Assembly (NCBI GenBank): GCA_963701665.1
Contig: OY969622.1
Coordinates: forward strand, 1,024,001 to 1,088,000
Length of the DNA stretch: 64,000 nt
Direction: 5' to 3'
DNA from: Candidatus Babeliales bacterium
Lineage (GTDB): Bacteria; Babelota; Babeliae; Babelales; JANWKD01
Both the position numbers and the translations under genes were made by a program. The notes beneath the pieces were generated by a model, which was given only the letters and a program-made list of their open reading frames with translations, had not been told where the DNA came from and made no database searches. Positions 6,304-61,864 of the stretch are shown here, one piece after another. Position 1 is the first letter of the stretch; each line of letters starts with the position of its first letter.

Positions 6304-8457
6304 ATGATAGTGAAATTAAAACTACATCCATTACATTTAATTATAGCATTTTTCATTCCAAGCATCTTTTACGGAATGTCTGAGCCAAAAATTGCTAAGC
6401 AGCACTCGATCAAAGATTACGGAGAGTTATATTCACAACAAGGTCTTAGAAGCCTACAAGCAATTTGTTTAGGCGTTATAGCAGATAATATTAAAGATAC
6501 TATTGATACAAAAGATCCATTAAATGATAAGCCTTTAATTGAAGAAATCTTAAAGCAAGTATCAGATTACGTCCCACACTTGTTAGAGTATTGGAAGGCA
6601 CATACGCAACCAACATGGAAATTCTTAACACGAGTACCCAATAATATAGATGTAAAGTGGTACAATTCAAAATTGGCTATCTGGTTTGATTCTAAATTCG
6701 ACAAAATTGGCATTTTGCATAGAGATATTGTTAGTTATAAAGATAACCCATTTACGGGAGATTTTGACTGCATTACTGGCAGTAAAGACAATACTTGCAT
6801 TGCAATAAGCAAAAAAAATAAAATAAGAATTTTTTCAGGTAACCATCCATATGAAACTATCCATCGTTTTGAATTGCCTGATACTGATGCTGTTACATCA
6901 CTCGTTTTTTCTCCCGATAAAAATGCTCTTGTCGTAGGCAGTTCAGATGGTAGCATTTATTATATTTTTTTGAATAAACTCAGTTCCTATCCTATGTTAA
7001 CAGAAAAGCATCCTACATCATCAAGCATAAAACATCTTACTTATGCCCCAAATGGCACATACTTTATTTCAATTGACGGGAAAGGCAATGCACTCAAATG
7101 GTATTTTTCATTACATTGTCCTTTATCATCGCATCCTGTATTCCTAGATGGTCCCGTCTTCTATAGCATTATTTCTTTGGATAGTAAGTTCATTTTTTTT
7201 GATAGCTCTTTAGCGCACAAGAAAAATATACAACCCCAAGGATTCATATTCGATGTTAATGATGAAAAAATAATACTTTTTGAAAATGTAGATATTCGTG
7301 GTGTAACTCAAGGGAATAATTTTTTTGGCATCCAATATGAACATAGAGAAAAAACTGTTGCTCGTGACATGGGCAGTTATCTGGCCGCAGCTATTGAAGT
7401 GGAGCTTATTCCTTGGCTTGTAGCAATTGATGTAAAAGGAAATTTTCAAAAATTCTCGTACAATAAGAAAGTGACGACGCTAATCAGTCCGACCAATCTT
7501 TTAGATAGCATGATGTGTTGTGTCTATCAAAATCAAAAATCTTATGACACTTTTTTTTGTTGTTCAGCAAAACCAACGTTAGATCAATTATTATTCAAAC
7601 TTGCCCTAGAAGCAGCACTGAAACATAATAAAACAGCTCATACAAAATCCTTACTCTCACATTCTATATTTTCAACATTTGAACCACACACTGAACAGCA
7701 CACATTACGAGAAAGAATTGATTTGACTCTCTCCAAAGTACATCCTCCATTAGTTGCCCTCCATTTTGTTTATACGCATATCGACCAATTACTACAAACT
7801 AACAAACCGTTCGATACCGTATTGAATCCTGATATGTTAGATGGTTATGACAATAATATTTTAGAGATGATTCATTATCTTACTCAGGAAACAGTTCGTT
7901 CGTGGTTCTCAAAAAAAATAAATCAACAGACTAAATTAATACACACATTAAATAACTTTGAACTTGAAGGAACGCAATATTTGTTATCAGTTAATAGGCA
8001 GTTTGTTTTTGACACTTTTAACACTATAGTAAATGCTGCTAAAAATAATTTTAATGCGCTCAAAACAATACAAAAATCAGGTATAGAAAGAAAATTACGC
8101 ACGTTTACAACTAACACAAAAAGTATCTTGTCAACGGCGGATCATCTTGATACCTTAATTAAACTTAAGAATGAGAGTTTATTACAAGAGGGACGCTATT
8201 ATGGGGGTGAAATTTCTGATTACTACAATCTCGACATAGCAAAACATATGAAGAATTGTATATATAAATTGGAACGATCAGTACCTCCATCTTATAGAAG
8301 CATGGATGAAATTTTACCTAATACTTTATTTGGTCAAGCAGTTAAAGCGTCAGAAGATAGTATTCAAAGCTATGCATCAAGCGTAACGTCTCCTGATAAA
8401 ATGAAGATTTTTCCACGTCTTTTATACAAACATGCACATCTGCAATGCACAAAGTAA
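6304..8457 (+). CDS. Secreted-type WD40/beta-propeller protein with a BC-box-like motif
   Basis: 717-aa ORF, signal peptide ending FYG|MSE, SLQAICLGVI motif, WD-like repeats (VTSLVFSPDKNALVVGSSDGSI, IKHLTYAPNGTYFISIDGKG). Confidence 0.75.
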   Translation: MIVKLKLHPLHLIIAFFIPSIFYGMSEPKIAKQHSIKDYGELYSQQGLRSLQAICLGVIADNIKDTIDTKDPLNDKPLIEEILKQVSDYVPHLLEYWKAHTQPTWKFLTRVPNNIDVKWYNSKLAIWFDSKFDKIGILHRDIVSYKDNPFTGDFDCITGSKDNTCIAISKKNKIRIFSGNHPYETIHRFELPDTDAVTSLVFSPDKNALVVGSSDGSIYYIFLNKLSSYPMLTEKHPTSSSIKHLTYAPNGTYFISIDGKGNALKWYFSLHCPLSSHPVFLDGPVFYSIISLDSKFIFFDSSLAHKKNIQPQGFIFDVNDEKIILFENVDIRGVTQGNNFFGIQYEHREKTVARDMGSYLAAAIEVELIPWLVAIDVKGNFQKFSYNKKVTTLISPTNLLDSMMCCVYQNQKSYDTFFCCSAKPTLDQLLFKLALEAALKHNKTAHTKSLLSHSIFSTFEPHTEQHTLRERIDLTLSKVHPPLVALHFVYTHIDQLLQTNKPFDTVLNPDMLDGYDNNILEMIHYLTQETVRSWFSKKINQQTKLIHTLNNFELEGTQYLLSVNRQFVFDTFNTIVNAAKNNFNALKTIQKSGIERKLRTFTTNTKSILSTADHLDTLIKLKNESLLQEGRYYGGEISDYYNLDIAKHMKNCIYKLERSVPPSYRSMDEILPNTLFGQAVKASEDSIQSYASSVTSPDKMKIFPRLLYKHAHLQCTK

Positions 8458-8510
8458 ATGTAATAAAAAGTTTCAGGAAGAGAGTTCAGATTACAACCTC
8501 CACTTTCTTT

Positions 8511-8753
8511 TTAATGTATGTCTTGTTTCGTTATCAACTGAGCCTGTAGGTCAAATAATTCTTGTTCCAATTCTGTCATTTTTAGGAACGCTTTGTCCTG
8601 TTCATCAAACATTTCTTCGGATATCTCATGATTCTTGTCATCACCATTGATGGGAACTACGCCATGTCGAAAAATTAGATTTTTAAATTCTTCGACGTGG
8701 GATTCCATCCTGATTAATATTTCATTCCGTTTTTGCTCATAGGATTTGTTCAT
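8511..8753 (-). CDS. Small hypothetical protein (helical, acidic)
   Basis: 80-aa ORF with an AGGGA SD-like site upstream, directly downstream of the PPIase genes. Confidence 0.5.
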   Translation of the reverse strand: MNKSYEQKRNEILIRMESHVEEFKNLIFRHGVVPINGDDKNHEISEEMFDEQDKAFLKMTELEQELFDLQAQLITKQDIH

Positions 8754-8782
8754 GTTAGGTTCCCTAAAAAGAGAAAAGTTAA

Positions 8783-9793
8783 TTATTCAACTGCTGAAAT
8801 AGAACTGAACGAACGCAATTCTTTTTTATATTCATCAATCATGTGTTGTAATTTTGGCATACGCAGCGTGTGCAAAATTTCACGATACCGTTTTTCTAGA
8901 GGGATAACGCGCGCTTCTTTTTTGTTAACTAAGCGCAGCACTTCAAAACCGCCATCGACAAGCTGTGCTGGCGCACATTCGCCACGCGCTAACTGTGTAA
9001 TATACTTTTTCTCATCGGCAATATCATTTTCTTTTAGCCAGAACGGCTCGCCCCAACGAATCGATTCAGGACTTGTTTTAACACGTTGTTCTAAATCCTG
9101 CTTTTGAGCTTCCAATGGTTGTGACGTATCAAAAGGAATGTAGGCAACTTGTAATTGATATTTTGCAGCCTTAATTTTCGGATGTGCCTCATAGTATTCT
9201 TTGATTTCATGTTCAGGCAGATAGATGCGGGACATAATTTTTTGTTCAATCATCGTATTACCCGCGCCCATTTTTTCAAATTCTTCAAGTGCACCTTGCG
9301 GGTCTAATCCTGCTTCTGCACAAATTTTATCAAAGACTTCATCAGTTAACTTATGCTGTCTTTTAATACCCTGAATATGTTTTTGTGCAAACTCAGTGAT
9401 GGGAATTTTATGTTTGAGCGCATCTTGATATATTAACTCTTTGTCAACTATCTCATCGGCAGAAGGAATTTTGCCATCAAAGCCGGGCGTCTCTAATTCG
9501 CTGCGGGTTATATAATAGCGCCGTTCAGGCCCGTCAACAATACATGAAACTTCGTTAATGAGAAAACGCTCTTCTTCTATCTGTATGTCAGCAGGCACTT
9601 CTTCTGGCACCTCTGCACTTGGTAATTGTTCTTGAATGTCTTGTTCTGCTACCTGCGCATTTGGCAGTTGTTCTTGAATTTCTTGCGCATCTTGGGGCAA
9701 TGGCTCCGTGTTTGATTGTTCATCACCCATAAGCGTTCCCATGAATAAACTAAAAACAATTGTCGTTATGAAAGAATAGCGTCTGTTTTTCAT
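8783..9793 (-). CDS. SurA/parvulin-like periplasmic chaperone
   Basis: Signal peptide, SurA-N-like 'INEVSCIVDG', 'EHEIKEYYEAH', degenerate rotamase region, 'PLEKRYREI' C-terminal helix. Confidence 0.7.
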   Translation of the reverse strand: MKNRRYSFITTIVFSLFMGTLMGDEQSNTEPLPQDAQEIQEQLPNAQVAEQDIQEQLPSAEVPEEVPADIQIEEERFLINEVSCIVDGPERRYYITRSELETPGFDGKIPSADEIVDKELIYQDALKHKIPITEFAQKHIQGIKRQHKLTDEVFDKICAEAGLDPQGALEEFEKMGAGNTMIEQKIMSRIYLPEHEIKEYYEAHPKIKAAKYQLQVAYIPFDTSQPLEAQKQDLEQRVKTSPESIRWGEPFWLKENDIADEKKYITQLARGECAPAQLVDGGFEVLRLVNKKEARVIPLEKRYREILHTLRMPKLQHMIDEYKKELRSFSSISAVE

Positions 9794-9813
9794 GAAATAT
9801 GCTTTCAATGCGC

Positions 9814-9843
9814 AAAGGGGAATTGCGGTACAATTCCCCTTTT
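9814..9843 (-). terminator. Hairpin / intrinsic terminator between the two PPIase-like genes
   Basis: AAAGGGGAATTG-cggta-CAATTCCCCTTT, a perfect 12-bp stem. Confidence 0.65.
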
Positions 9844-9864
9844 GTTATTGGTTATCAATGTTTT

Positions 9865-10902
9865 TTACATTGCTTTCATTGGAGCAGCAGCTCTAGTTGG
9901 CATCTCTTGTTGTGCAACCATTTCTGGTTCTGGTGCGGTTGTTTTCTTTTTGCGTTCAAAATAATCTTTGTTAACAGAAACTTTATAATCTTGCGCTAAT
10001 TTTTCTAACTCTTTATTTAATGCTTCAGCTATTTTTTGCTGTTTGAGCATATTTTCAATGCCAGCTTTTACATCTTCAAAAGGAACATACTGTGGTTCTT
10101 TTTTGCCTGTCGCTTTTACAACAGCAAATGATGTACTGTTAACTTCAATTAACTCTATTGATGGGAACTTCTTAAATTCAAGAAGTTTCTTTCTAATAGC
10201 GCCATCTACATTGAAGCTTTGATTGCCAACTTCGCCAAAATCTTTCACCGGAAGATTTGCATCTTTTGCTGCAGTTTCAAAACTTACAGCGCCATCTTTT
10301 ACTTTATCATAGAAGGCTTGCGCGGCATCTTTAGAATCGAACATCACGCCTTGCGCTGTAACGCCGCCTTGGGAAAGCATCAACTGAGGAATGCTGTTTT
10401 TGTTGTCATTATAATATTGTCTGACTTCAGCATCGGTGACTTTTACTGGATATGCTTCTTGGAAATATTTAACATTCAAACTACGACGAGCAAACTTGCG
10501 AATTTTTTCTTCATCTTTTAGGTATTCAGGTTTCTTATCAATGCCATTCTTTTCAACCCATTCAGCAAGTACGAGCTCATTTTTTAAACCATCAAAAATT
10601 TGCTCTTCTGCACCTGGCATCATTTCAAACACAGCTTTATATTGAGGTTGTGCTTCTAGAAACTCATTAATGTAATCTTCAAAATCTTTGACCGTTGCTT
10701 TAGGCGTTTTACCATCATACATAGTAATAAGTACTTCTTCATTCCCACCTTTTGGCGCACTCATCGGCATTGATGTGCTTTTATTCTCCATCTTCATGTC
10801 TGTTGCAGATTCTTTTGTCTCTTTTGATTCAAATAAACTGCATTGAGGGAGTATAGCAAGTGAGGCGAGTGCAATCATAAAGACATACTGTTGTTTTTTC
10901 AT
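9865..10902 (-). CDS. PrsA/PpiC-type peptidyl-prolyl isomerase, probable lipoprotein
   Basis: Lipobox-like LAILPQC, 'VTDAEVRQYYNDNK', 'SFETAAK', 'PFEDVKAGIE' parvulin-foldase features. Confidence 0.8.
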   Translation of the reverse strand: MKKQQYVFMIALASLAILPQCSLFESKETKESATDMKMENKSTSMPMSAPKGGNEEVLITMYDGKTPKATVKDFEDYINEFLEAQPQYKAVFEMMPGAEEQIFDGLKNELVLAEWVEKNGIDKKPEYLKDEEKIRKFARRSLNVKYFQEAYPVKVTDAEVRQYYNDNKNSIPQLMLSQGGVTAQGVMFDSKDAAQAFYDKVKDGAVSFETAAKDANLPVKDFGEVGNQSFNVDGAIRKKLLEFKKFPSIELIEVNSTSFAVVKATGKKEPQYVPFEDVKAGIENMLKQQKIAEALNKELEKLAQDYKVSVNKDYFERKKKTTAPEPEMVAQQEMPTRAAAPMKAM

Positions 10903-11142: not shown

Positions 11143-12531
11143 ATGCAGCTTCAAACTCTTCTTAATTCCAAAAACACCGATACACCATTAGCTTTAACAT
11201 TTTTATTCCGCGCCACCTTAGTTTTCAGCTTGTGGTGTAGTGCAACATACTGCATGGAAGACCCGCTTAATGTAAAACAGAAATTACCAACAGGTTCTAA
11301 TAAAAATTCTGGTATCAAAAAAGAACTTATAGGTCTAATACAAAGTTTAAAACAGGAACAAAATGGCCTTATAGGCTCAGCTCAATTTGGTGTTGAAAGG
11401 GAAGAAGATCAAGAACCTTTAAGAAGTGAATTGGTTGAAGAACTCATTAATGAAAGCCCTCATCGAATAAAAAAACTTATTAGTGATATCAATAAAAGAC
11501 AAAATCCTGACGATTTATTTCAGAAAGCTCCTTATATGAGCAATATACATGTTTTAGTCGGTTCTCCAGGAACTGGTAAAAGCAGTCTAGCAAAGGCTAT
11601 TGCAAAAAAATGTTCTATACCTTACCTTTTTGTCGCGATTCAATTGTTATCAAATCAATATCAGCATTCTGGCTCAAGCAATCTTGCAAGTATTCTTGGC
11701 CCCTTATCAAGGAGTAAAAAGCCCGAGGTAATTATACTGGATGAGCTACAGACAATTGTCAAAAAAAGAGGTAAAGAAGATTACGATATGGAAGGCGCTC
11801 AATCATTGTGGAAATTCCTTGATACTTTTAAAAACAAAAAAAATTTATTAATCATCGCCACTGCAAATGATCTTGATATTTTACCTGATCAAGTCCGTAG
11901 TCGCATCAAAGTAGGAATACACGACATAAGTCTTCCCGATCAATCTAAAAGAGAAAAAATTATTTCTTATTATTTACATCTTTATTCGCCTTCCTTGCAA
12001 GCTGTTCCCTCACCATCTGAAATTCAGTTTTTAGGATATAAAACCAAAAAATTCACACCGCGTGACTTAGAAACCATGATACGAGCCGCATTATCCAATG
12101 CTCACGACCGTTCAGGCGATGAAATTTTAGTTCTTGATAAAAAAGACTTTGATGCCGCTATTGCACTGGTAACAAAAGATGATGAAAGATTTTCAATCTC
12201 TAAAAGAACTTACAAAATGATTAAGCCACATATAGGAACTACTATTCAAATTATGGGCCCACTAACCATACAAATAATAGTCAATAGTTTTATGCAATAT
12301 TGCGGCATGAATCAACAAGTCCTGTTTCATAACGAAAGCATAGGGTTGCAAAGAGAGGGATTAGACTTACAAAAGAAAAGCTTTGCACAACAAGAGAGAT
12401 TCCACAATGAAAACAAAAATCTCACCTTGGAACATTTCAGAACACAGCTCATATGTCAAATTGTAGGCAATATACCTGGAGCTATTTATCATTGGTATTA
12501 TGGTAGTTCCACTCAACCAAAACCCCAATAA
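11143..12531 (+). CDS. AAA+ ATPase with an N-terminal signal-like segment
   Basis: Walker A GSPGTGKS, Walker B IILDE, IIATAN, SR finger, FTPRDLE. Hydrophobic N-segment ending TYC|MED. Confidence 0.85.
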   Translation: MQLQTLLNSKNTDTPLALTFLFRATLVFSLWCSATYCMEDPLNVKQKLPTGSNKNSGIKKELIGLIQSLKQEQNGLIGSAQFGVEREEDQEPLRSELVEELINESPHRIKKLISDINKRQNPDDLFQKAPYMSNIHVLVGSPGTGKSSLAKAIAKKCSIPYLFVAIQLLSNQYQHSGSSNLASILGPLSRSKKPEVIILDELQTIVKKRGKEDYDMEGAQSLWKFLDTFKNKKNLLIIATANDLDILPDQVRSRIKVGIHDISLPDQSKREKIISYYLHLYSPSLQAVPSPSEIQFLGYKTKKFTPRDLETMIRAALSNAHDRSGDEILVLDKKDFDAAIALVTKDDERFSISKRTYKMIKPHIGTTIQIMGPLTIQIIVNSFMQYCGMNQQVLFHNESIGLQREGLDLQKKSFAQQERFHNENKNLTLEHFRTQLICQIVGNIPGAIYHWYYGSSTQPKPQ

Positions 12532-12558: not shown

Positions 12559-15500
12559 ATGAAAACATTCAAACTATATTCTATCTTTGCCATTTTTGCG
12601 TATCTAACCTCAACTGCCATGGATAACAAAATAGTTATCCATGGACCTACTTACGATACTGATAATGAACAAAGAAAATTCATTACTCCTTTTCAACGAA
12701 ATACCGCAGCAAATTTTATTCCGCCTGAAAGAGATATTATTGCTATCCCAACATCATCCAAAATCAATACGGCACTTTCAGCAATACAGTGCATAGCATC
12801 ATTAGAACAGGCACATTTAGAACAACAATTTAATACGTGTGTTGATATATTAAGCCAAGCAAATCTTTCCGAGTCAATAAGTGCTATTTTATCTCTTGGT
12901 GATCTTCAATTTCAACGGTGCAACATACTTGATGAATCTTCTGTTGAATATCAGTATTATTTGAAAACAACAATTAATGACCTCAATTATATTCTATATG
13001 ATAAAACAGGCTCTCTTCAATTAACATCAATACCTTCTCAGCAATATGACTCTGCAAAAGTAATAACCGATGACTTTTTAAAACCATTACGGCCAGACGA
13101 TTATAAAGAAATTGTAGAAAAGCTTGCTTTGTTAAATCGACCAGGATTTGCAGAAGTTCATCAAGAACTGACACAAGGAGGTATACGGCCATACTTCCGC
13201 GCATTAGGTAGAGGAATTTCTGCATGTTTCTCTTATCAAGAATCATCTGATAGGTTGAGAAAACTCATCAATGGCAATGATGTTAGAAAAGATCTTATAA
13301 AAATTAAGGAATATGGAGAACAATTCAAATTTTTGCAAGCAAAGGCTATTGTTGAAAAATATGATAATGCTCAATCATCAAGTGATAAAAAAATAGCTGA
13401 TATTGCTCAACAACTTTATCTTGAATATATAGACAAGACATATGATCTTTTGATCGAGAGACTTCACTTAACACCATCACAAGAATTAAAACAAGAATTA
13501 CGTGACCTCATACCTTATATAGTTGAAAAACCCGCAAAAGCAGCCGAACTCTTTTATGAAAAATTAGAACAATACAAAAATAATGAAAAACAATATGGAC
13601 TTTTACAACAGCTCATCAATAAGGTTGGATTACCTAAATTTTATAGCTATGATCGTACATGTTTAAATGCTATCGAAATTCCCACTACTATTCGTGATAG
13701 CAATCACATCAAAGAACAACAAACATTATTTTCACTTGCGACATGTCCCACACATGACAAAGAAGCCCTTGCTTTAGGAATGAGATATGTTGTTAGATCA
13801 TGCCAAACCGAATCATCATTATACACTCATTATGCCAAAGCACTGCTTCATAGCGTTCAATCAAAAGATCCCGATACGAAACTTTTGAAATGTACCGATT
13901 TTACTCAAACATTTGACGTCAAAGCAAAACAGGATATGATCCGTCGAATGATTCCTGCCATCTGCAACATAACAAATGAGATTAACCAACTCAAACAGCA
14001 ACCAGGATCAGAAGAACGCATTAAGCAATTACAATCACTACGAACAACACTACATGATGCATTCCAAGCTTTGGATGATACAGCATCGAAACGAATATCA
14101 TTTAATAAGGTAATAAGTGAGGCAATACGCGAACTCAATGTACTTAATCGTTCGGAGATGATCCTCACAAAATCACAAGAAGATCTGCGTGCTTTACTGC
14201 AAAGCGTTGACCTTCTTTATACAGGAAAAACAGAAACACATAATCTTCAAGTATTGCAAAAATTACAACCTCAATCTAGCCATGCTCAACCTGATTTAAG
14301 CAAAACCTATGAGCAGTATTTGATGCGGGAGACACTTGATAATAAAGATTTATGGACTGAGGCGAATGACTCTCTGCGCAATGAGGTTATTAAGCACTAT
14401 ATAGCATCATCACAAGATGAGGCTCTCCAAGAAATAGAAACAATTATTTTAAATCGTGATACCAATTGCACCATAGCTAAAAATATTTTTACTGTTATTC
14501 AAGATAGCGCTACAATAATCGCAACTGATTTTCCTCTCAAAGAAATTGGTGATTATGCTCATGAAACGATTACTCATCCAACAGCATATTTATTAAATAT
14601 CGCAAAAGATTTTGCACAACTAGGTCATTTTCTGAAATCATTTGTTTCTGATTATGCAAAAAATAATATCGCTTCTTTAGGTGCAAGCAAAAAAGATGCT
14701 TATGAATTTAGCAAAAAATATAATGAGGCTGTTCATAAATTTGCTGAAGGCTGGAAAAACTTAAGCCTAGAGCATAAAAAGGAATTTGTAGCAAAGCTAA
14801 TCGTTGATCTTGCTGCAAATAAAGCATTAGGCATTGGCGCTAAACTTATCAGCAACATTATGGGAGACTGCATCATATCATTTGTTGATACACTTCCCCC
14901 TTCAATTTCAGGTGGCGGTGCAGTCGCTATTACACGAGATATCGCTTTAATGCCTGAACTTGTCGCAGAAGTAGCGGAAGTTATTCAAGCAGGTGGGGCA
15001 GCTGTTGGGTCAACGTCAGTGGCAGTTGGTTCAACAGGAATACAAGGTATAGTTACATTGTATGAGACAACCCCAGGTAAAAATAGCAAATCATCAAAAA
15101 TAATACCCCAAGGCTCATATGAATTGCCTATTGAAAAATTCAAAGCATATACAACGATTGTTGAAGATGGTAATCCCAAAATTATTGAAAGTACCTTTAG
15201 TACTGAAGAAGCATTAGAAATTTTGAATAATTCTTCGGAATTAAAAATGTTAAATTCTCGAATCGAAGAATTAAAGAAAGCAACACAGGATATCAGATTC
15301 GGAATTTCAGATGAGAGATTCAAAGATGTCCCAAAATTATATGAAAAAGCAATGCATCAAGCTGAACAATTATATGAAAGAGCAAGAAAAAATAATAACG
15401 ATATTCAAAAAATTGCCTACAATATTGGTATATCTGAAAAAGTAATAGAAAAAATTAAAAATCATATTTTTATTGAAGAACATATTCTCGGTCATGGCAA

Positions 15501-15708
15501 CGAACAATTTTTATCAAAATTTTTGACTGATATTGATATTGCCGAAAGTTGGGAACGACTTATAAATGGTAATTTTGTACAATCAGATTTGATTTTGTTA
15601 CAGCACGAATTAACCGAATCACTCCTGATGCAAGGAACAAAATTAAATTATGGTTCTGCTCATTATAAAATCGTAAATAAAATATTTAATTGGAATGCTA
15701 CCTTGTAA
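12559..15708 (+). CDS. Large secreted protein, candidate polymorphic toxin
   Basis: Signal peptide (STA|MDN), long helical body, Gly/Ala-rich hydrophobic linker, C-terminal domain KIAYN..IKNHIF..H..AESWERL..G..DLILLQHELTE..AH. Confidence 0.7.
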   Translation: MKTFKLYSIFAIFAYLTSTAMDNKIVIHGPTYDTDNEQRKFITPFQRNTAANFIPPERDIIAIPTSSKINTALSAIQCIASLEQAHLEQQFNTCVDILSQANLSESISAILSLGDLQFQRCNILDESSVEYQYYLKTTINDLNYILYDKTGSLQLTSIPSQQYDSAKVITDDFLKPLRPDDYKEIVEKLALLNRPGFAEVHQELTQGGIRPYFRALGRGISACFSYQESSDRLRKLINGNDVRKDLIKIKEYGEQFKFLQAKAIVEKYDNAQSSSDKKIADIAQQLYLEYIDKTYDLLIERLHLTPSQELKQELRDLIPYIVEKPAKAAELFYEKLEQYKNNEKQYGLLQQLINKVGLPKFYSYDRTCLNAIEIPTTIRDSNHIKEQQTLFSLATCPTHDKEALALGMRYVVRSCQTESSLYTHYAKALLHSVQSKDPDTKLLKCTDFTQTFDVKAKQDMIRRMIPAICNITNEINQLKQQPGSEERIKQLQSLRTTLHDAFQALDDTASKRISFNKVISEAIRELNVLNRSEMILTKSQEDLRALLQSVDLLYTGKTETHNLQVLQKLQPQSSHAQPDLSKTYEQYLMRETLDNKDLWTEANDSLRNEVIKHYIASSQDEALQEIETIILNRDTNCTIAKNIFTVIQDSATIIATDFPLKEIGDYAHETITHPTAYLLNIAKDFAQLGHFLKSFVSDYAKNNIASLGASKKDAYEFSKKYNEAVHKFAEGWKNLSLEHKKEFVAKLIVDLAANKALGIGAKLISNIMGDCIISFVDTLPPSISGGGAVAITRDIALMPELVAEVAEVIQAGGAAVGSTSVAVGSTGIQGIVTLYETTPGKNSKSSKIIPQGSYELPIEKFKAYTTIVEDGNPKIIESTFSTEEALEILNNSSELKMLNSRIEELKKATQDIRFGISDERFKDVPKLYEKAMHQAEQLYERARKNNNDIQKIAYNIGISEKVIEKIKNHIFIEEHILGHGNEQFLSKFLTDIDIAESWERLINGNFVQSDLILLQHELTESLLMQGTKLNYGSAHYKIVNKIFNWNATL

Positions 15709-17090: not shown

Positions 17091-17092
17091 TT

Positions 17093-18629: not shown

Positions 18630-19655
18630 TTACTTTAATTCACACTCTTTTACTTCAGCTTCACTAAACCTTTTAATGATGTAGGCAATTTCCTGCACAA
18701 CTTCTTCAGGCAATAAACCATAATCTTCTGCAATTTTCTCAACACGGTAACTGAGGTCCCAAAATGGGATATCCGCCCATTGCCTCTTCCATTGTCCCAT
18801 ACAAACATTTGCTTTCATCGCATCTAATTGATCACAACGATGTTTTACCCTGGTTGATGCATCACTATGTTTGTTGTTAAAGCACACATATTCAATGAAT
18901 GAATTTTCTTTTGTATGCAATCGATCTATTTCTTTTGTGACCGCTTTTTTAAAAACACTTTCAGAGGAATTTTTTTGTAAGATAAGTATTCTCTTTTTCA
19001 TAGACTCTAGTTCTTGCTCTAACTCCGATCGAGAACATTTTAATTCGTCATTACATAATTTTTCAACCTCCTCCAGCACATGATCAAGTCTGTTCTCAGC
19101 TTTCCCACACATATCTTTCACTGCCGCCCTATAAAAATCTTCAGAATTTGCTTCGTGGCTTAAAATTCTCCGATGAACATCATCAGTATTATTTTCTACA
19201 TAAGGGTGCACAGCACAATATAAAAAAAAATTCAAACGGGAACAATGATCATCTTGCGATAGCTTAGATGGTGAACCTTCTTTTAAAAAATTTATTCTAG
19301 GCGTACATGCTTTTCCAACTTTTGAGTCTTCATCGTAGAGTGTATCAAAACTACATTCTTCAACATCGTGTTTTCTTAACATTTCTTTAGCCATATGTTC
19401 TTTAGCAATAAGTGATAAAGGACGTACCGGACGCACCTTTCTTAAAGATGATTGGTTTTCTGTTTGGCTAGATTTCTCGAAATTTTCTTGTGTTTCACGA
19501 TTAGCAGATTTTTCTTCTTGTACCTGTTGCACGCCTTCAGTTTTTTCATAAGCTCTCTGCGCTGCCTTGAGCCATTTATCTGCATCATCCTGCATGGCAT
19601 TCAGCGATGTAACAAAAATAATAGTCGGCAGTATAATTTTATACATGCGTTGCAT
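18630..19655 (-). CDS. Array gene 7: shared N-terminal module fused to an unrelated non-ankyrin helical domain
   Basis: MQRMYKII..LNA|MQDDADKWLKAAQRAYEKTEGVQQV, then a divergent sequence with PLSLIAKEHM. Start inferred from the conserved 17-bp overlap. Confidence 0.8.
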   Translation of the reverse strand: MQRMYKIILPTIIFVTSLNAMQDDADKWLKAAQRAYEKTEGVQQVQEEKSANRETQENFEKSSQTENQSSLRKVRPVRPLSLIAKEHMAKEMLRKHDVEECSFDTLYDEDSKVGKACTPRINFLKEGSPSKLSQDDHCSRLNFFLYCAVHPYVENNTDDVHRRILSHEANSEDFYRAAVKDMCGKAENRLDHVLEEVEKLCNDELKCSRSELEQELESMKKRILILQKNSSESVFKKAVTKEIDRLHTKENSFIEYVCFNNKHSDASTRVKHRCDQLDAMKANVCMGQWKRQWADIPFWDLSYRVEKIAEDYGLLPEEVVQEIAYIIKRFSEAEVKECELK

Positions 19656-20706
19656 GCTCATCCCCATTTTTTTGAAATTGTTTGAGTCGATTGTTGCGTT
19701 CTTCTTCAATTAGATAATAAATCGATTTACATGGGCCATCATGCATTTTACATTCTCGAAGATAATCCTGGGCAGTTTTGCCCTCTCTATTTTTAGTATC
19801 AAGATTTATTCCTGCTTTTAATAATGCTTGAGCCGTTCTTATCAAATTGTCACTCGAAGTAAAAAAGATAGGCGCTGGATTGGAAGCCTGCGTTGATAAA
19901 ACGTGAAGTGCTGTTTCATCACTATCATCTACAGAATTGATAGAGATATTTTGTTGTATATAGTACTCTACAAGATCAGATGAACATGAACCCCATGAGG
20001 GTCCGCCTATTGGACTCTTGATTGCGCGATGTAATAAAGTTTCATAACCATTGCATTTGCAATTAACTCTTGCACCGTGCTTAACTAACAGCTCGGCTAT
20101 TTCTCTATTTTCAGCCCAGCATAGTGAAAACATACCAGGAGTAGCTTTATTCGGGTTAGCTTTTTGTTCAAGCAAAAGTTTTAAGAGCGAAAAATCATTC
20201 GCTGCTATGGGTGCAACAAGTGCTCTCGCACGATATTCTTTTGATTTTGCGTTGGGATCGGCACCTGCACACACCCACCCACTTATTTTACAACGAGTCT
20301 TAGGATATTCTTCAAAATTACGATTATCTGTGTTATCACCTAATTGGTTATTTTTTTGTTCTTGAGATAACGAAACTGCTCTTCGAAAGTATCTTTTTCT
20401 TTTAAAATAATCACACGTTAATGGTTGACGTTGCTCAGGACATTCTGAAAACCATGTTTCATGATCATTTTCATCAAAATCGGCTTCATTATATTCTTCT
20501 TGTGTAGCATCTGTGCTTTCTCTTTGCTCAAATTTTTCAAAACTTGCTTGTGCATGGTTCTCTTCATTGACTTGCTGCACACCTTCAGTTTTTTCATACG
20601 CTCTTTGTGCTGCATTCAGCCATTCATCTGCATCATCTTGCATGGCATTTGATGATGATGCAACAAAAATCATCATCAGTATTATAATTTTATACGTGCA
20701 TTCCAT
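19639..20706 (-). CDS. Array gene 6: secreted ankyrin-repeat protein (type B)
   Basis: Signal peptide, conserved N-module, ankyrin motifs TLLHRAI, TALHVL, GKTAQD, and the GGPSWGSCS insert. Confidence 0.88.
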   Translation of the reverse strand: MECTYKIIILMMIFVASSSNAMQDDADEWLNAAQRAYEKTEGVQQVNEENHAQASFEKFEQRESTDATQEEYNEADFDENDHETWFSECPEQRQPLTCDYFKRKRYFRRAVSLSQEQKNNQLGDNTDNRNFEEYPKTRCKISGWVCAGADPNAKSKEYRARALVAPIAANDFSLLKLLLEQKANPNKATPGMFSLCWAENREIAELLVKHGARVNCKCNGYETLLHRAIKSPIGGPSWGSCSSDLVEYYIQQNISINSVDDSDETALHVLSTQASNPAPIFFTSSDNLIRTAQALLKAGINLDTKNREGKTAQDYLRECKMHDGPCKSIYYLIEEERNNRLKQFQKNGDEHATHV

Positions 20707-46882: not shown

Positions 46883-47296
46883 GTGAAATCAATTAATACT
46901 AAACTATTCTATGCAACTCTGATAAGCACCCTCATGCTTCTGAGTACAACAACGTACGCTGTTGATTCAATAGCAAGCCAAAAGCCAGAAGAAGAAATCG
47001 TTGCAGAATTCGTTGCCTGCATCAAGGATTTTAACGATAAGCGTACCTATGTACAATTTATCGATTCGGTCCTTGCAAAAGTAAAACTCCATAAAGAGTA
47101 TCTTACTGAATATTTCAAGACGAACTATCCAAAACTCAGTTTTGAAGGCTTTGTAGCAGCATTAGAAGCTGCTCGTAAAGCAACCAATCCTGCTTCCGCT
47201 GGTACTGCCTTATATAACTACAATCAACTATTACCAAAAGAAGCAACACTCGGTGTACTCTTAACTGGTATCACTCGTCGGATGAGAGTCTCGTAA
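46883..47296 (+). CDS. Exported hypothetical protein
   Basis: AAGGA SD, GTG start, signal peptide TYA|VDS. Confidence 0.7.
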   Translation: MKSINTKLFYATLISTLMLLSTTTYAVDSIASQKPEEEIVAEFVACIKDFNDKRTYVQFIDSVLAKVKLHKEYLTEYFKTNYPKLSFEGFVAALEAARKATNPASAGTALYNYNQLLPKEATLGVLLTGITRRMRVS

Positions 47297-49295: not shown

Positions 49296-50159
49296 ATGAA
49301 AAATAGTTTTTTTATAAATAGTATTGTTGTAATTGGCACAACATTGATACTTTTGCCACTGAGTGGCATGCAAGAGAAAACTGGTCCATCTGAATACACA
49401 CGATTCAGCACTCTCAAAAGAAAATGTCTCAATATCGTTATAAAGCAAACGCTTACAAAAGATACTCCTTTATCTCCAGACATTATTGAAGGCCTTCAGG
49501 CATTTAAAAAATTACATTCACCGCAAGATAATTATTTAATCAAAGCAATTAAAAACTTATTCTCCTCTCCTATTGGCTCTTTAAGCAATGATATTAGATC
49601 CGCATTTCAATTGTATGCACCGCCTACTCTGAAAGAAAAAGTAGAACGTATTAATAAAAAAAAAATAAAAAGATTTGATGAGCTCACCGCGCAGGACACC
49701 AATGAACCAAATGAAGTTGTTCCAAAAGCGCTCAATATCTTTGATAGCCTCGCGTGGATTCTTAACAATCATTGCCATAATGATCTCGACACGGGACTTA
49801 TTCAGCTAAGTCGCTATAGAGAGTGTAGCAAGAGAAAAGTTCTTTGCGGTATGTTGCTTTCACTTGGAGCAAATGTAAATTACTATGGTACTGCTAATCC
49901 CAACATTCGTGAAACGACACCACTTGTTACAGCAGTCATTCACAAAAAGCATAAACTTATAGAAATGTTTTTAAAGAATGACGCTAATCCAAACCAACGA
50001 GAAAAATATGGCGATACTCCTTATACCCTCGTAAAGGGATGGGAATATCCTGATTTAAAACTTTTAATGTTACTTGAACACTATGGCGCGGTTGATACAC
50101 CGCCCTGTAAAAATAATCATGCACCTTCGGAGAAATGTTCTCTGTGTATTTTGCAATAG
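49296..50159 (+). CDS. Secreted-type ankyrin-repeat protein with a BC-box-like motif
   Basis: LSG|MQE, TLKRKCLNIV, LLSLGANVN..TPLVTAV, DANPN..YGDTP; ends CILQ. Confidence 0.8.
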   Translation: MKNSFFINSIVVIGTTLILLPLSGMQEKTGPSEYTRFSTLKRKCLNIVIKQTLTKDTPLSPDIIEGLQAFKKLHSPQDNYLIKAIKNLFSSPIGSLSNDIRSAFQLYAPPTLKEKVERINKKKIKRFDELTAQDTNEPNEVVPKALNIFDSLAWILNNHCHNDLDTGLIQLSRYRECSKRKVLCGMLLSLGANVNYYGTANPNIRETTPLVTAVIHKKHKLIEMFLKNDANPNQREKYGDTPYTLVKGWEYPDLKLLMLLEHYGAVDTPPCKNNHAPSEKCSLCILQ

Positions 50160-50225: not shown

Positions 50226-50990
50226 ATGAAAAAAATAATAAGCCTATGCATATTCTTATGTGGCATAACAGCATTCGCAGTAGAAAATGAACTTCACACC
50301 TTATCTCAATCATTAGACGCTCTTGCTCAAAAGCTCTCAGGACAAGACATACCTAAGAAACGAGCTGAGGCAGTAAATTATGATACTTTTAAAGTCAATA
50401 CTATTACTATTCATTTGCTACAAGGTGATATTACAAAATTACAAAGTGAAAATGGCATTACCGTTGACGCAATCGTCAATGCTGCTAATAAGGAGTTGGG
50501 ACGCGGAAGTGGCGTCTGCGGTTCTATTTTTAAAGCTGCTGACATCAAGAGACAAGATTTTTTAACGCGTGAAATTGGAAACAGATATCCGCATGGTGTT
50601 GAACCTGGTGATGCAGTAATTACTGAAAGCTATGGCTTAAAATCTGAAGGCATCCAAAATATTATTCATGCTGTTGGGCCAATTTATAAAGATTATAAGA
50701 ATAAAAAGGAAGCCGCAACAGTATTAAGCAATGCCTATTCTACCAGTATGGATATTGCGGAAATAAATAATCTTACCTCAATTGCCTTTCCTTTTATTAG
50801 CAGCGCAATTTATGGCTATCCAAAACCTGAAGCAGCTAGAGTTGCCCTAGATACAATTATTGAGTACGCTCAAAATAATAAACGATCGCCAGTACACGAT
50901 GTATATTTTGTACTTTTCAGCACTGAAGATTTAAATATTTTTAAAACTGAGCTGAGCAAGATTATTAAAGCTAAGTTCCAGCTTAAATAA
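50226..50990 (+). CDS. Signal-peptide-bearing macrodomain protein
   Basis: QGDIT, DAIVNAAN..LGRGSGVCGSIF, IIHAVGP, SIAFPFISSAIYGYP. Confidence 0.9.
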   Translation: MKKIISLCIFLCGITAFAVENELHTLSQSLDALAQKLSGQDIPKKRAEAVNYDTFKVNTITIHLLQGDITKLQSENGITVDAIVNAANKELGRGSGVCGSIFKAADIKRQDFLTREIGNRYPHGVEPGDAVITESYGLKSEGIQNIIHAVGPIYKDYKNKKEAATVLSNAYSTSMDIAEINNLTSIAFPFISSAIYGYPKPEAARVALDTIIEYAQNNKRSPVHDVYFVLFSTEDLNIFKTELSKIIKAKFQLK

Positions 50991-52874: not shown

Positions 52875-54664
52875 GCCTCTTTAAATTTGTAAAAAGCAAT
52901 GTTGCCATCCTAGAAGTTGTCAGTGCTTATACAACGCTCAAACAAGCGGGCCATTATTGGAAAGGCTGCTGCCCACTGCACACAGAAAAAACGGCCTCGT
53001 TCACGGTAAGCCCGAATCGTAATATTTTTTACTGCTTTGGATGTCACATTGGTGGTGATGCTATCGCATTTATTGAAAAAGTGGAAAATTGCTCCGCGCT
53101 GCAAGCTTCAGAATATCTTATTGATCGGTTTTCTTTAACCGTACCTGAAGAATTGCGCTCAAAAGATCGCCAGCACAAAACGAGTGCACACACCGATGAA
53201 AAAAAACAGTACTGGGATTTGTGTGCGCACACGGCCGCGTGGTGCCACAATCAGCTCATGCGCTCGCCTCATATTCTGGAATATCTCGCTCACCGAGGGA
53301 TAGAAAAAAATATGATCGCTCATTTCATGCTCGGTTTCTTTCCGAGTGGCCAATATGCACTCAAGTCACTCGTTGATTATGCCAAAACGCAGAATTATTT
53401 ACTTGATGATCTTCTTACTGCTAACATTGTTGGCGTAACTAAAGGCACTATTTTTTCTTCATTAGAGGATCGTATCGTTTTTCCCATAAAAGATCATCTT
53501 AGTCGCCATTGTGGATTTGGGGGGAGAATTTTCAAACCGCAGGATACCCGCCCCAAATATTATAATTCCAAGGAAAATCCCTATTTTTCAAAAGGGTCCT
53601 TGCTCTTTGGCCTTGAACTTGCCAAAAAACATATTCAGCAAAGTAACAGCGCTTTCTTAGTAGAAGGCTATATCGATTGTATCGCCATGGTGCAACACGG
53701 CTTTCCCAACACGGTGGCAACCCTTGGTACTGCTTGTAATTTAGAACATTTGAAAGTCCTTTCACGCTATTGCCAAGTCCTCTATGTTCTGTTTGATGGT
53801 GATATAGCAGGCCAAAAAGCCATGCTCCGCCTTACTGATTTTGCCTGGCAGGTCAATATTGATCTTAAAATCGTTCGATTGCCTATAGGGGAAGATCCTG
53901 CCTCACTGTTGGCAAAAAAAGGCGACCTACACTCCCTTGTGAGCCAAGCTCAGGACATCTTTATGTTCTATATTCAGCACTTAGGACAGGACTTTTATCA
54001 AAAAACCTTACAAGACAAGATGCAGAGCACTAAAAATTTACTCTCGCTAGTGGCCCATCTAGAACCGCTCAAACAGGATTTTTTATTACAGACTGCATCG
54101 AAAGCGTTTGCTATACCCTGTACCACGCTCAAAACTGAGCTAGCACGCTTAAGCCACAAAGTTGAACCGGCGCCAACCCAGGATACGCCGGCGCAAACAG
54201 CTCCAAAAGCTGAGTCAATTTCCCTGAAAAGAATATCTGATTTGGAAAAAAAATTATTTTCTGTTATAGTAAATAACATAATGGAGTTACCGGCACCTAT
54301 AGATCACACCATTATTGAGTCTTTTAGTTCACCTTTACAGGAAATTCTTACGATCTTGCTTGAGAAAAAAGAAGAAGCTGCACCCTTTGATTTTGCTGAG
54401 TTTTTTGAACGTTTAACACCAGCCCAGGGGGAGCTTACCAATAAAATTTTATTCACGTATCAAACCTATGATGATACGCAAAGTTTTATGCAGCTTTTTG
54501 AGCATTTTGCCAAAAGCCAATGGAAAGCGAGGGTGAATATGCTTAAACTAAACCTCGCAAAAGCACATAAAGAAGGTAACGAGCAGAAAGTAAAAAAATT
54601 ATTAGAAGATTTCCAACATCTCAAACGTACGTTAACTAGGGGTACACATGAGCAAAAAAATTAA
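52871..54664 (+). CDS. dnaG: DNA primase
   Basis: CPLH.EKTASF..FYCFGC zinc finger, FGGR..PKYYNS, VEGYID, ATLGTA, FDGDIAG Toprim motifs. Confidence 0.97.
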
Positions 54665-56827
54665 ATCAAAAAAAGTAAAAGTAGCATCGAAAAAAGCTGT
54701 AGCAAGAAAAACAGTAGCAAAAAAAGCAGCGTCGAAAAAAGTAGCATCAAAAAAAACAAGCGCAGCCCGTTCAAAAGCGAGTATAAAGAGCCGCCCAAAA
54801 AAAGTCAGCCCAAAGAGCAGTGCAAAGAGTAGCGCAACAGCTAGTCCAAAAACCACGCTAAAAGGCAAAGCAAAAGATATTGATACTCGCAAAAAATTAG
54901 CACCGAAAAAAAAGATCGTAGCGCCGAAACCTACCGCGCAACAAGCGCATGAAGAGGAAGAAACACTCAACCCTGTCGTAGGGGAAGCGCTCGGTGTAAA
55001 ATCTGAATTTAAAAAGGGTCTTATAGAACCACTCATTGCCAAAGGTAAAAAGAGTGGATTTTTGACCTATGAAGAAGTCATGGAATTTAGTCATAAATTC
55101 CAATTGACTGATGTAGAAACAAATAATCTGATGCGCGTTTTTGATAAAGAGCATATTGAACTTCTCATGCAAGAAGAGCTTGAAGCAAACTCGCCTGATA
55201 TTGATGGTTTTGAAAAAGATGATGAGCCACTTAAAGGTAAAAATCTTAAAGAAAAACTTGAAAATTCTTTAGATATTGAAGCTGATGAAGAACTTGTCGA
55301 AGAAGAAGACGAAGCTGACAGCGATGAAGATAGAACGGCAGCAATTCGAGAAGCTGCAAGTTCTGCACAAATTGCCGACGGTGTTAAATGTTATTTGCGC
55401 GACATTGGTAAAATTCCTCTTTTAAATAAAAAAACAGAATCAATTATTGCCGAACAGATCGCATCAGGTAAACGCGAGTCAATTGAAGCTATTTCACAAT
55501 TTCCATTTATCCATAAAGAATTTGTGTCAATTGGCGAACGTATCCAAAAAGGCACCCTTCCTTTAAAGGATGTCATTCAGTTCTCTGAATTTGATCAGGA
55601 AAATTTGCCAAAAGTGCAAGAAGAAAAAGATGCTCTTCTAGCCACCATCCAAAAAATCAAAGACTTAATTGGCAATGAAGAAAAAATTTATCGCCACTAC
55701 CGCGGCAATCTCGATACTGATGCAAAAAAGAAAGAGATGCTTGATAAGGTCAAAGAGAACAAAAAGCTCATTGCCCAAACAATTCAATCAATCAAAGTTG
55801 CCAACAAATTGATCAAAAAGCTTGGCAATAGAATTGAAAAAGCTGTTTTAAAGATTCAAGAAAAACTGACCATCATCAAAGAGAACGAAGAAAAACTCGC
55901 CTATTTTAAACAAGCAAAAAACGTTGATCCGCTTGAAAAAGAAGAGTGCGAAAAAAATATTCGTGGCGCCTACAAAGCTATTAAAAAAATTGAAGGCGAA
56001 ATGGGCCTTCCTCAATCGCTCATCTTCAAATATTATGCACAACTTAGACATGGCCAAGATAAAGATAAACGTGCCAAAGATGATCTTGCCAAAGCAAACT
56101 TGCGTCTTGTGGTTAATATTGCCAAAAAATATATTAACCGCGGGTTACATTTCCTTGATTTAATTCAAGAAGGTAACTATTGGTCTTAATGAAAGCAGTT
56201 GAAAAGTTTGAATTTGAACGAGGGTATAAATTTTCGACCTATGCAACCTGGTGGATTCGTCAAGCCATAACTCGTGCAATTGCCGATCAATCACGTACAA
56301 TTCGCGTGCCAGTGCACATGGTTGAAACGCTTAATAAAATTAACAAAATTAAGCGTACGTTTATCCAAGAACATGGTCGCGAGCCAAGTCATGCTGAATT
56401 TGCAAAAGAGCTTAATATTGATGAGAAAAAGATCAAAAATATTATCAAAATCTCTAAAGAACCAATTTCTCTTGAAACACCCGTTGGTGATAGCGAAGAT
56501 GCATTCATTAAAGATTTCATTGAAAATGAAGATGAATTTTCACCCGCTGACACGGTAAGCAGCAATGATTTGAAAGAACGCGTGCGTGAAGTTCTTAAAA
56601 CATTGACGCCGCGTGAAGAAAAAGTGTTAAAAATGAGATTTGGGATTGATGTTGCTTCTGAGCATACCCTTGAAGAAGTTGGTAAGGATTTTTCTGTTAC
56701 TCGTGAACGTATTCGTCAAATTGAAGTGAAAGCATTACGTAAATTACGACATCCTTCCCGCAGTAAAAAATTAGAATCGTTTTTTGATAAAGAATTTGAT
56801 ACGATTGCTAATGACTCGATCGAATAA
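54648..56827 (+). CDS. rpoD: RNA polymerase sigma factor RpoD, interrupted by a frameshift at ~56178-56188
   Basis: First ORF: region 1.1, [27 protein letters not shown]. Second [43 protein letters not shown]. Follows dnaG. Confidence 0.95.
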
Positions 56828-58170: not shown

Positions 58171-58223
58171 TCACAGCATCTTCCTTGACTTAGCAAATAT
58201 CAAGTTTCTAAGATTAATTTAAA

Positions 58224-58412: not shown

Positions 58413-58442
58413 AGTTGAAATAATTTATTAGGGAGAGAGTGT

Positions 58443-58808: not shown

Positions 58809-58829
58809 TGTTGCCTAAAAAATTTTTCT

Positions 58830-59153
58830 TTATTTATTTTTTCGTTGCTCATATTCTTTTTCTAGGAAGTCAAAATATTCATCAGATATAGGCTCATAGT
58901 GCCAAGGACGTTCTTTCCAACATTTGATATCACCAGCTTTACGTTCTTCGATATCAATTTTACATTTATGAGCCACCATAATTTTAAAGCCATCTACCGG
59001 AAACAAATCCGCACTATACCATATCTCTTTTTTATTTTCCCCTCTGCGAACCGTGCTTATATTTGCTACGTCTAATTTTTGTGGAGCATCCATTGTTTGA
59101 GTATCGGTTATACACACAATGGTAAAAGCAATCATATAATAACGTAACTTCAA
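58830..59153 (-). CDS. Small secreted-type hypothetical protein
   Basis: TTG start with AAAGG upstream; signal peptide TQT|MDA. Confidence 0.55.
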   Translation of the reverse strand: MKLRYYMIAFTIVCITDTQTMDAPQKLDVANISTVRRGENKKEIWYSADLFPVDGFKIMVAHKCKIDIEERKAGDIKCWKERPWHYEPISDEYFDFLEKEYEQRKNK

Positions 59154-61466: not shown

Positions 61467-61540
61467 CCCTCACATCATTCCTCCATCAATGATATGCTAT
61501 GGTAAATTCATAGCAAAATATAATGAGGTGAGGCTTTGCC

Positions 61541-61864
61541 ATGAACAAAAAAAATCTTACGCTAATCCTGGTTCTTTCTTTCCCTACTTTCAGTTTTTGC
61601 ATGTACCATCGCTTTCTAATTATTCATAACGATCAAAAAGAGAGTATAAAAATTGAATTTTTTCGACCAGATGTAGGTTTTGGTGGTTCACATACCTGCA
61701 TAAAAGATGAAATTATACTACAGCCACAAGAATGGACGTTAGCCTCCATCGGAATAGCAAAACGCAAGCCATATTCATCAATGAGGTGCATTACTTCTAC
61801 TAAAAAATTTATTCTAAGAGTTCCTGAAGACGTCTCTCAAGTTAATATAAAAAACACACCCTAA
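61541..61864 (+). CDS. Small secreted-type hypothetical protein
   Basis: GAGG SD; signal peptide SFC|MYH. Confidence 0.55.
   Translation: MNKKNLTLILVLSFPTFSFCMYHRFLIIHNDQKESIKIEFFRPDVGFGGSHTCIKDEIILQPQEWTLASIGIAKRKPYSSMRCITSTKKFILRVPEDVSQVNIKNTP

Follow-up and report, generated by a model that had tools for sequence, protein, structure and literature searches.

Methionine at the predicted signal-peptidase site of host-like exported proteins in a Babeliales bacterium

Introduction

Why should exported proteins with no other similarity to each other begin, directly after the signal peptide, with methionine? The question is raised by a 64-kb stretch of the genome of a Candidatus Babeliales bacterium (the window; bases 1,024,001-1,088,000 of a single contig of 1.34 Mb, 93.6% complete, labelled G000), in which the initial annotation noticed some twenty effector-like proteins with Met at the apparent cleavage site. 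That annotation read the Met as mimicry of host proteins acetylated by N-terminal acetyltransferase B (NatB), as a sorting signal for an unknown outer-membrane route or as the old start codon of a domain recruited behind a signal peptide. Here we find that the Met-first signature is real and genome-wide, that it is concentrated in host-like protein classes and that, with about an even chance, it gives secreted effectors an N-terminus that host N-degron ubiquitin ligases would leave unread. Judged by MreB the organism belongs to Babelota: over most of its length the protein is 72-86% identical to MreB of Babeliales, Dependentiae, TM6 and unclassified records, and 63-65% identical to that of the two deltaproteobacterial outsiders. 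Babelota are widespread, and their cultured members are parasites of protists. Most of their signal-peptide proteins are without known function, and the choice and delivery of effectors with only Sec and a type II secretion system (T2SS) is an issue. Signal peptides are reported on 44% of Chromulinavorax proteins (PMC6561590); for Babela, the available part of the genome report gives 79 ankyrin proteins with signal peptides and T2SS as the sole secretion system detected (PMC4378268).

Results

The excess of Met at the first position of the predicted mature protein (+1) is confined to that position. Genes (1,280) were called with a dicodon and ribosome-binding site (RBS) model, and signal-peptide sites are predictions of a home-made parser with preset priors. 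The parser is blind to Met, which carries no weight in the h- and c-regions and is penalised at -1; from +1 onwards no residue contributes to the score. At a score of at least 8, 162 of the 464 predicted signal-peptide proteins of the whole genome have Met at +1, against 0-24 of 464 at the other offsets from -8 to +12, with the zero at -1 a consequence of the parser's own design. Among low-scoring proteins the proportion is 2.5% of 550, and shuffling of residues 13-45 lowers the count to 11-18 of 464, so the earlier claim of an excess over background holds. Small control sets gave none (0/19 in Escherichia coli K-12, 0/10 in Fusobacterium). A score of at least 6 admits 539 proteins, 190 with Met (the Met class) and 349 without; since singletons (100/345) and clusters (127/402) both keep the Met, paralogue families are not its driver. 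Gene callers may start at the +1 Met and drop the signal peptide from the annotation, as our own caller did at gene 6304.

All 21 Met and five non-Met junctions that had been listed for the window were found in the translations of their genes. In 18 of them the cut predicted by the parser falls directly in front of the Met, gene 21756 scoring only 4.9, while in genes 6304, 11143 and 58830 the cut is displaced by 2-3 residues; the five junctions without Met were all parsed as such. The signal peptides satisfy the features of substrates of Sec and signal peptidase I (SPase I), with a positive n-region, a hydrophobic h-region and small residues at -3 and -1, of the usual SPase types L/S/T/A and A/G/S/C. 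A valid -3/-1 site precedes the Met in 188 of 405 cases in proteins with an h-region, against 19 of 168 without one. The Met class is richer in Gly, Ser and Cys at -1, with Ala there in 50% of the proteins against 65% in the non-Met class.

The second mature residue (+2) is selective too. In the Met class (n = 190) it is Glu in 92 proteins, Asp in 24, Gln in 23, Asn and Lys in 12 each and His in six, which corresponds to enrichments over the local background of 4.4-fold for Glu, 2.4-fold for Asp, 1.9-fold for Gln, 1.7-fold for His and 1.5-fold for Asn. Small residues are depleted (0-0.28 of the background), and so are Phe, Leu, Ile, Val, Tyr and Arg (at most 0.26). The mature protein thus begins as a NatB-type Met-Asp/Glu/Asn/Gln start in 151 of 190 cases, while one of these four residues stands second in 109 of 435 true starts of cytosolic proteins and in 142 of 349 mature ends of the non-Met class; counting only Glu, Asp and Gln, as in the mature x-E/D/Q end left by the Plasmodium export element (PEXEL), the figure is 139 of 190. 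Small second residues of the type accepted by methionine aminopeptidase (MetAP) occur in 11 of 190 against 133 of 435 cytosolic starts. Between diverged paralogues (median identity 38%) the Met is kept in 24 of 39 pairs, whereas other +1 residues are unchanged in 6 of 30; this retention indicates selection. The two classes differ little in Cys parity (even numbers in 54/107 and 115/202), net charge or C-terminal residue.

The Met separates protein classes, assigned by hand and with the junctions of the first 176 proteins already known at assignment: it is present in 20/32 ankyrin, 6/6 WD40, 6/6 DnaJ and 2/4 AAA proteins (34/48 together), but in 2/54 envelope or periplasmic proteins, 0/21 exported transferases, 2/25 other enzymes, 1/6 M48 peptidases and 0/8 false positives. 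The split between effector-like and housekeeping proteins proposed for the window therefore holds (34/48 against 2/54, p 2e-13). The Pfam scan behind these classes covered 436 proteins out of the 539 predicted to be exported and 30 window proteins, with long proteins trimmed to 480-520 aa and with 26 proteins shorter than 110 aa and the genome end set aside; among exported proteins lacking a Pfam match, 113 of 283 carry the Met. The two envelope exceptions are BamA and TolB. BamA can be ruled out as a conserved Met protein, the Met being present in none of 13 other parsed homologues (16 of 30 loci were not parsable).

Further features of the Met class point towards the host. All seven open reading frames (ORFs) of the genome that end in a CaaX motif have signal peptides, and six of them have Met at +1; in the seventh a Met precedes the called site by two residues. 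By motif patterns, strong clusters resembling nuclear localization signals (NLS) occur in 28/190 Met-class against 17/349 non-Met proteins, and BC-box-like and F-box-like motifs in three and two Met-class proteins against none. Residues that would form Arg/N-degrons stand at +1 in 11/48 host-like against 52/75 envelope and transferase proteins, a difference that for the most part restates the Met count. A small exported protein at G000:C1:187442-187801 combines a possible Met-Gly-x-x-x-Ser start with a C-terminal CaaX, which suggests that it may carry two host lipid anchors.

Other exported proteins lack the Met at +1. Among them are NCA2-like, MavL-like and DOT1-like proteins and an ATP-dependent DNA ligase (G000:C1:633684-635276, 338752-340248, 722835-723494 and 565495-567375, respectively). 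Nor is it found in any member of the glycosyl-, methyl- and sulfotransferase clusters at G000:C1:377344-382693 and 1121776-1149447, whose signal peptides look cleavable; outside the cytoplasm, enzymes that depend on nucleotides are unusual.

Distribution across Babelota

The Met is spread unevenly over the phylum. In 78 Babelota neighbourhoods of mreB it stands at +1 in 104 of 454 proteins, a few dozen of which belong to a single beta-barrel family. In samples of 100 kb it was found in 10/42 proteins of G003, 8/31 of G014, 19/41 of G020 and 4/32 of G022, as against 0/26 of G016, 1/31 of G009, 1/24 of G005 and 2/26 of G058; at a lower score threshold, G062 has 9/36, G008 2/33 and G027 1/17. The signature is thus common in six of 12 sampled Babelota, this one included, and rare in the other six, with the grouping into rich and poor genomes set after the counts and with families f7 and f18 left out of the sampling.

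In the sampled regions of G058, 74 ankyrin proteins are predicted to be exported; ten of them have the Met, only one as Met-Gln. Many have Ala or an X-Pro-Ala/Met junction instead. The latter is also frequent in an array at G058:C1:1385001-1445000 (L272-L274) of some 50 short ankyrin genes with signal peptides; a dipeptidyl peptidase might trim such a junction, or cleavage might occur after the Pro. In G008 (10/33; L285-L288, L292-L294) and G027 (4/17; L289-L291) the +1 residue is most often Gly, possibly a second lineage rule. CaaX ends occur in 3/177 Met-class proteins of the relatives and in 8/765 others, so 8 of the 11 CaaX proteins there have no Met. A search with an ankyrin query against plasmids yielded no useful endosymbiont comparators. 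Since Met-poor genomes exist and G058 is predicted to export its 74 ankyrins, the Met rule is, as far as sequences can tell, lineage-specific and not required for ankyrin export.

Secretion, peptidase and acetyltransferase genes

At least two secretin matches were found in all 61 Babelota searched, and nearly all have a neighbouring pair about 4.7 kb apart. The secretin region of this genome lies at G000:C1:7514-15771, and GspC, with its PDZ domain, and a secretin at G000 6365-10429. TolC and VirB4 families were not found in this 93.6% complete genome; nor was FHIPEP, which rises above the cut-off in one of 61 Babelota. That one, G066, has a strong match to the FlhA/SctV family (L066, G066:C11:179248-181099), possibly contamination or an acquired gene of a flagellum or a type III secretion system (T3SS). 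Several Babelota families have a third, PilQ-like secretin. A T3SS in the Met-poor families was considered and rejected: the third secretin sits among ComM/PilB-type genes, and FHIPEP is confined to 1/61.

Two tandem, intact-looking lepB genes for SPase I, with ordinary motifs, form a local duplication at G000:C1:911619-913409. Similar local duplications occur in several other Babelota, and the LepB tree is too poorly resolved for counting gains and losses. A signal peptidase dedicated to the Met class was likewise rejected, the tandem being lineage-specific, the Met-rich G014 having a single lepB match and the motifs being alike in Met-rich and Met-poor genomes.

An acetyltransferase of the GNAT type at G000:C1:162567-163151 (L089:9580-10161, minus strand) occurs in 51 of 61 Babelota, in one copy in all but one; it was not found in five families, among them the Met-poor f4 and f12. 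It is present in all five sampled Met-rich relatives and also in four Met-poor genomes (4 Met in 126 proteins). An N-terminal hydrophobic segment is found in 133 of 147 homologues, with a net charge of +2.6 before and +0.1 after it, and the enzyme is accordingly predicted to be single-pass, N-in/C-out and periplasm-facing. Its sequence gives weak matches to RimI and Naa30, and the fold search a generic GNAT with no preference for NatB. It may serve as a modifier of the kind proposed for the Bacteroidetes Q-rule, for which it is a lead only. Homologues of two other exported GNATs are patchy or weak.

Genes of the window

Several Met proteins of the window have recognisable domains. A WD40 protein (6304-8457, plus strand) has Met-Ser after its signal peptide, the Met codon lying at 6376 and the parser cutting two residues later. 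An AAA ATPase with a long n-region (11143-12531, plus) has Met-Glu (Met codon 11254), called by eye at a parser score of 1.9. Seven paralogues of an ankyrin family form a tandem array (18630-25934, minus), all with a signal peptide followed by Met-Gln/His-Asp (Met codons 19595, 20643, 21709, 22769, 23823, 24877 and 25877, minus); Ank matches were obtained in two of three members scanned. A peptidase paralogue resembling M48 (27665-28675, minus; Met-Glu at 28612) has no Pfam match of its own to bear out the M48 label, but clusters with M48 paralogues in BLAST. In an exported J-domain (DnaJ) protein (37302-38690, plus; Met-Glu at 37371) the J-domain begins six residues past the Met. The clearest architecture for the host cytosol in the window, judged by its motifs, is that of an ankyrin/CaaX protein (49296-50159, plus; Met-Gln at 49368) with a BC-box-like motif, ankyrin repeats and a C-terminal CaaX.

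A further protein (25952-27646, minus; Met-Gln at 27589) proved in sequence comparison to be a true homologue of the eukaryotic ATAD3 family. Its +1 Met aligns within the eukaryotic homologues, whose own start region is exchanged here for a signal peptide. An ATAD3 query against the genome contigs gave no match. Chromulinavorax remodels the mitochondria of its host, and an exported relative of this ATPase, mitochondrial in eukaryotes, is of interest in that light.

The remaining Met proteins are a small protein (58830-59153, minus) with Met-Asp (Met codon 59093), cut by the parser three residues later, and six with no Pfam match: a 1049-aa protein (12559-15708, plus; Met-Asp at 12619), proteins with Met-Gln at 33659 (33590-34015, plus), Met-Glu at 36566 (36512-37213, plus) and Met-Asp at 43898 (43428-43958, minus), and small proteins with Met-Asp at 40813 (40747-41070, plus) and, with an atypical +2 residue, Met-Tyr at 61601 (61541-61864, plus). 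The non-Met controls comprise a periplasmic chaperone of the SurA/PPIC type (8783-9793, minus; +1 Asp), a macro-domain protein (50226-50990, plus; +1 Val) and predicted exported proteins with Asp (34004-34438, minus), Lys (45219-45602, plus) and Val (46883-47296, plus) at +1.

One listed Met protein is a housekeeping exception. The product of 1556-2845 (minus; 22-aa signal peptide, Met-Val, +1 Met codon 2779) had been counted among the effectors and is instead a conserved outer-membrane beta-barrel, with a FapF/COG4313/FadL-like fold (predicted model of pLDDT 94, FapF E 1e-11). The Met is found in 35 of 67 orthologues, at a variable first position before a conserved N-terminal motif. This core Babelota protein, encoded beside mreB, has three paralogues and no Pfam family; going by the modelled fold, it is a candidate lipid or peptide channel. 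Elsewhere in the window, RpoD is seemingly split at 54648-56827 between ORFs of 513 aa and 215 aa that overlap, which may reflect a frameshift or an assembly error. No RNA holder is on record for the window, which speaks neither for nor against one.

Discussion

The junction, its link to ankyrin, WD40, DnaJ and AAA proteins and to CaaX ends, its retention between paralogues and its unequal distribution among Babelota genomes are direct observations. The explanation that we favour, at about even odds, is that the Met gives secreted effectors an N-terminus unread by the N-degron ubiquitin ligases of the host. The effectors would be exported by Sec and cleaved by SPase I before the Met, would cross the outer membrane probably through T2SS, no other protein-secretion system having been found, and would arrive in the host cytosol unacetylated. 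Host NatA, NatB and NatC work on ribosomes, and the effectors would miss co-translational acetylation because they never pass a host ribosome. A basic, bulky, acidic or amide first residue would then create an Arg/N-degron and be disfavoured; a second residue of small size would allow removal of the Met by MetAP, exposing a degron of Gly, Ala, Ser or Thr, or of Cys; and an unacetylated Met before a hydrophobic or basic residue would be read by UBR ligases. Met-[E/D/Q/N] would remain as the class least read by ligases, and unrelated effectors would converge on it because it is the only class that the degron rules leave, as a preference and not as a gate.

[quoted passage not shown] The predicted +1/+2 profile matches what the rules leave free. 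Met-poor genomes lean to other starts, the G058 ankyrins to Ala or X-Pro-Ala/Met and G008 to Gly, as would be expected from evasion of the ligases. Two parallels outside Babelota also speak for it, the Met-Asp/Asn starts of one phytoplasma effector family and, going by the titles of two papers, N-end-rule control of secreted Listeria proteins. The host-facing part of the original mimicry proposal thus survives as the best reading; NatB acetylation itself is doubtful, since NatB does its work at the ribosome, during translation (PMC11735805), and escape from N-degron ligases requires no acetylation.

A number of observations weigh against this explanation. The same review describes NatB substrates degraded via UBR1 and UBR4 when unacetylated (PMC11735805), and its rules may not be those of a protist host. 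Twelve of the 32 ankyrin proteins of this genome lack the Met, most of them starting with degron-type residues, while BamA, TolB and the beta-barrel carry it. The enrichments of CaaX (3/177 against 8/765) and NLS (8/177 against 24/765) were not replicated in relatives. In G058 a stabilising +1 residue is found in only 43/74 ankyrins against 21/49 other proteins, a weak difference at ambiguous sites. The preference for Glu (92/190) receives no specific explanation.

A rather doubtful alternative is a sorting mark like that of PEXEL, in which T2SS or a step across a vacuole membrane would read the mature Met-acidic end and separate host-bound cargo from periplasmic residents. It would account for the sharp class split (34/48 against 2/54) and agrees with Plasmodium, where export needs a mature x-E/D/Q end however made (PMC10653839, PMC12483598), as well as with a T2SS secretin pair in 61/61 Babelota, TolC and VirB4 not found here and FHIPEP in 1/61. 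But T2SS is also present in genomes nearly free of Met-[EDQN] (2/140 in G058 and G027) that still export 74 ankyrins, 8 of 11 CaaX proteins in relatives do without the Met, and BamA and TolB carry it in this genome. A like start is seen in one family of phytoplasmas, which have no outer membrane. The unknown outer-membrane route once invoked is not needed, given T2SS secretins in 61/61 Babelota and the common export of Met-less ankyrin and CaaX proteins in relatives.

It is less probable that the ends are capped in the bacterium, as in the Q-rule, with the periplasm-facing GNAT acetylating Met-E/D/Q/N after SPase I at the expense of host-derived acetyl-CoA. The presence of the enzyme in 51/61 Babelota and all five sampled Met-rich relatives, its absence from the search results for f4 and f12, where Met-[EDQN] amounts to 2/140, its hydrophobic segment (133/147) and its weak RimI and Naa30 matches suit this idea, but it also occurs in four Met-poor genomes (4 Met/126), the family-level pattern amounts to one or two events, and the fold is generic. 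Periplasmic acetyl-CoA would be unusual, no transporter of the Acatn family was found, and the motif is missing from most envelope proteins, for which protection by a periplasmic cap would be expected as well. Evasion of N-degron ligases, a sorting mark and bacterial capping can coexist. In a combination to which we attach only slender odds, SPase I would expose Met-E/D/Q/N, the acetyltransferase would cap it with host acetyl-CoA, and the capped end would both select cargo for the twin-secretin T2SS and pass as a NatB product, an analogue of PEXEL maturation.

A processing preference, whereby cleavage by SPase I or release would go faster with Met-Glu, perhaps through a dedicated second LepB, is very unlikely: the tandem lepB genes and the additional Gly, Ser and Cys at -1 fit it, but the duplication is lineage-specific, a single lepB match was obtained in Met-rich G014, Met-rich and Met-poor genomes resemble each other in the motifs of the catalytic region, and the class split is left unexplained. 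Largely refuted is a relic or second start, be it a signal peptide added upstream of the old start, an internal start for a cytosolic form or a shuffled signal-plus-Met cassette: the J-domain six residues after the Met in the window, a slightly higher RBS score at the +1 ATG than at other internal ATGs (-1.54 against -2.03) and slightly better signal-peptide matches within the Met class (29 against 25) are outweighed by motifs of the Shine-Dalgarno type at 124/190 signal-peptide starts against 1/190 +1 ATGs, by upstream starts outscoring the +1 ATG in 185/189, by no enrichment of GTG or TTG at +1, by +2 residues unlike the genome's own starts (151/190 against 109/435), by the ATAD3 Met aligning inside its eukaryotic homologues and by signal peptides of unrelated Met proteins being 15.1% identical against 14.6-14.7% otherwise.

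Comparison with known systems

A literature search, with most subscription journals outside its scope, returned no report of a Met-first rule, and the word methionine is absent from the available text of the Babela and Chromulinavorax papers, supplements outside scope (PMC4378268, PMC6561590). Searches of an atlas gave leads that were weak or generic. New here are the partition by class, backed by host motifs, the uneven spread over families, the negative results on start codons, cassettes and peptidases, the phytoplasma parallel and the GNAT lead.

The secretion of host effectors with a mature Met-Asp/Asn end has a parallel in phytoplasmas, where the SVM effectors SAP54/PHYL1 of an intracellular bacterium are exported by Sec (PMC8026896). 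Of 20 SAP54 homologues, members of one family drawn from the supplements of that paper and from a sequence-archive search with Met-blind terms, 18 continue with Met-Asp/Asn after the signal peptide as listed (PMC8026896). The SVM proteins share a homologous signal peptide, whereas the Babeliales proteins belong to more than 100 unrelated families with unrelated signal peptides; the SVM signal family PF12113 was not among the Pfam matches shown, which for long lists were the top five families. In Listeria, N-end-rule control of secreted LLO and ActA in the host cytosol is reportedly the subject of two papers, judging by their titles in the reference list of PMC6160973. Those are single proteins, whereas the rule in Babeliales runs through the secretome.

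In Plasmodium, cleavage at PEXEL likewise exposes a two-residue end with E/D/Q second on host-bound proteins (PMC12483598, PMC10653839). The Babeliales rule differs in its Sec/SPase I pathway, its canonical -3/-1 site with no RxL upstream and its fixed first Met, and by analogy an export role of the PEXEL type appears disfavoured by the Met-less CaaX and ankyrin proteins of relatives. The likeness to NatB substrates is closer in sequence: of the five +2 residues that are enriched, four (E, D, Q and N) make up the NatB set, and MetAP-type and hydrophobic residues are avoided, but the Met is predicted to be exposed by a peptidase and is not the initiator, while NatB acts co-translationally (PMC11735805).

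The closest formal likeness is to the Q-rule of Bacteroidetes, a lineage-wide fixed P1' residue of SPase I substrates, where Gln stabilises exported proteins in all compartments and occupies the position in about 71% of substrates (PMC5837995, PMC10653852). Under the Q-rule at least about half of the substrates begin with Gln, as against 26/464 here, where 162/464 begin with Met; and where the Q-rule has no compartment specificity, the Met is split 34/48 to 2/54. Glutaminyl cyclase was not searched for, and the anchored GNAT, the candidate for a membrane-bound modifier, does not track the rule. The Met-first rule therefore works like the Q-rule without belonging to it: the end is Met-acidic in place of Gln, covers about 35% of substrates, is tied to host-like proteins and is patchy across families. 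If our explanation is true, the two-residue mark would be a quick predictor of effectors, flagging 113 of the 283 exported proteins without a Pfam match, and bacterial sequence would here bear the imprint of host N-degron pathways across a whole secretome, for which phytoplasmas offer a parallel.

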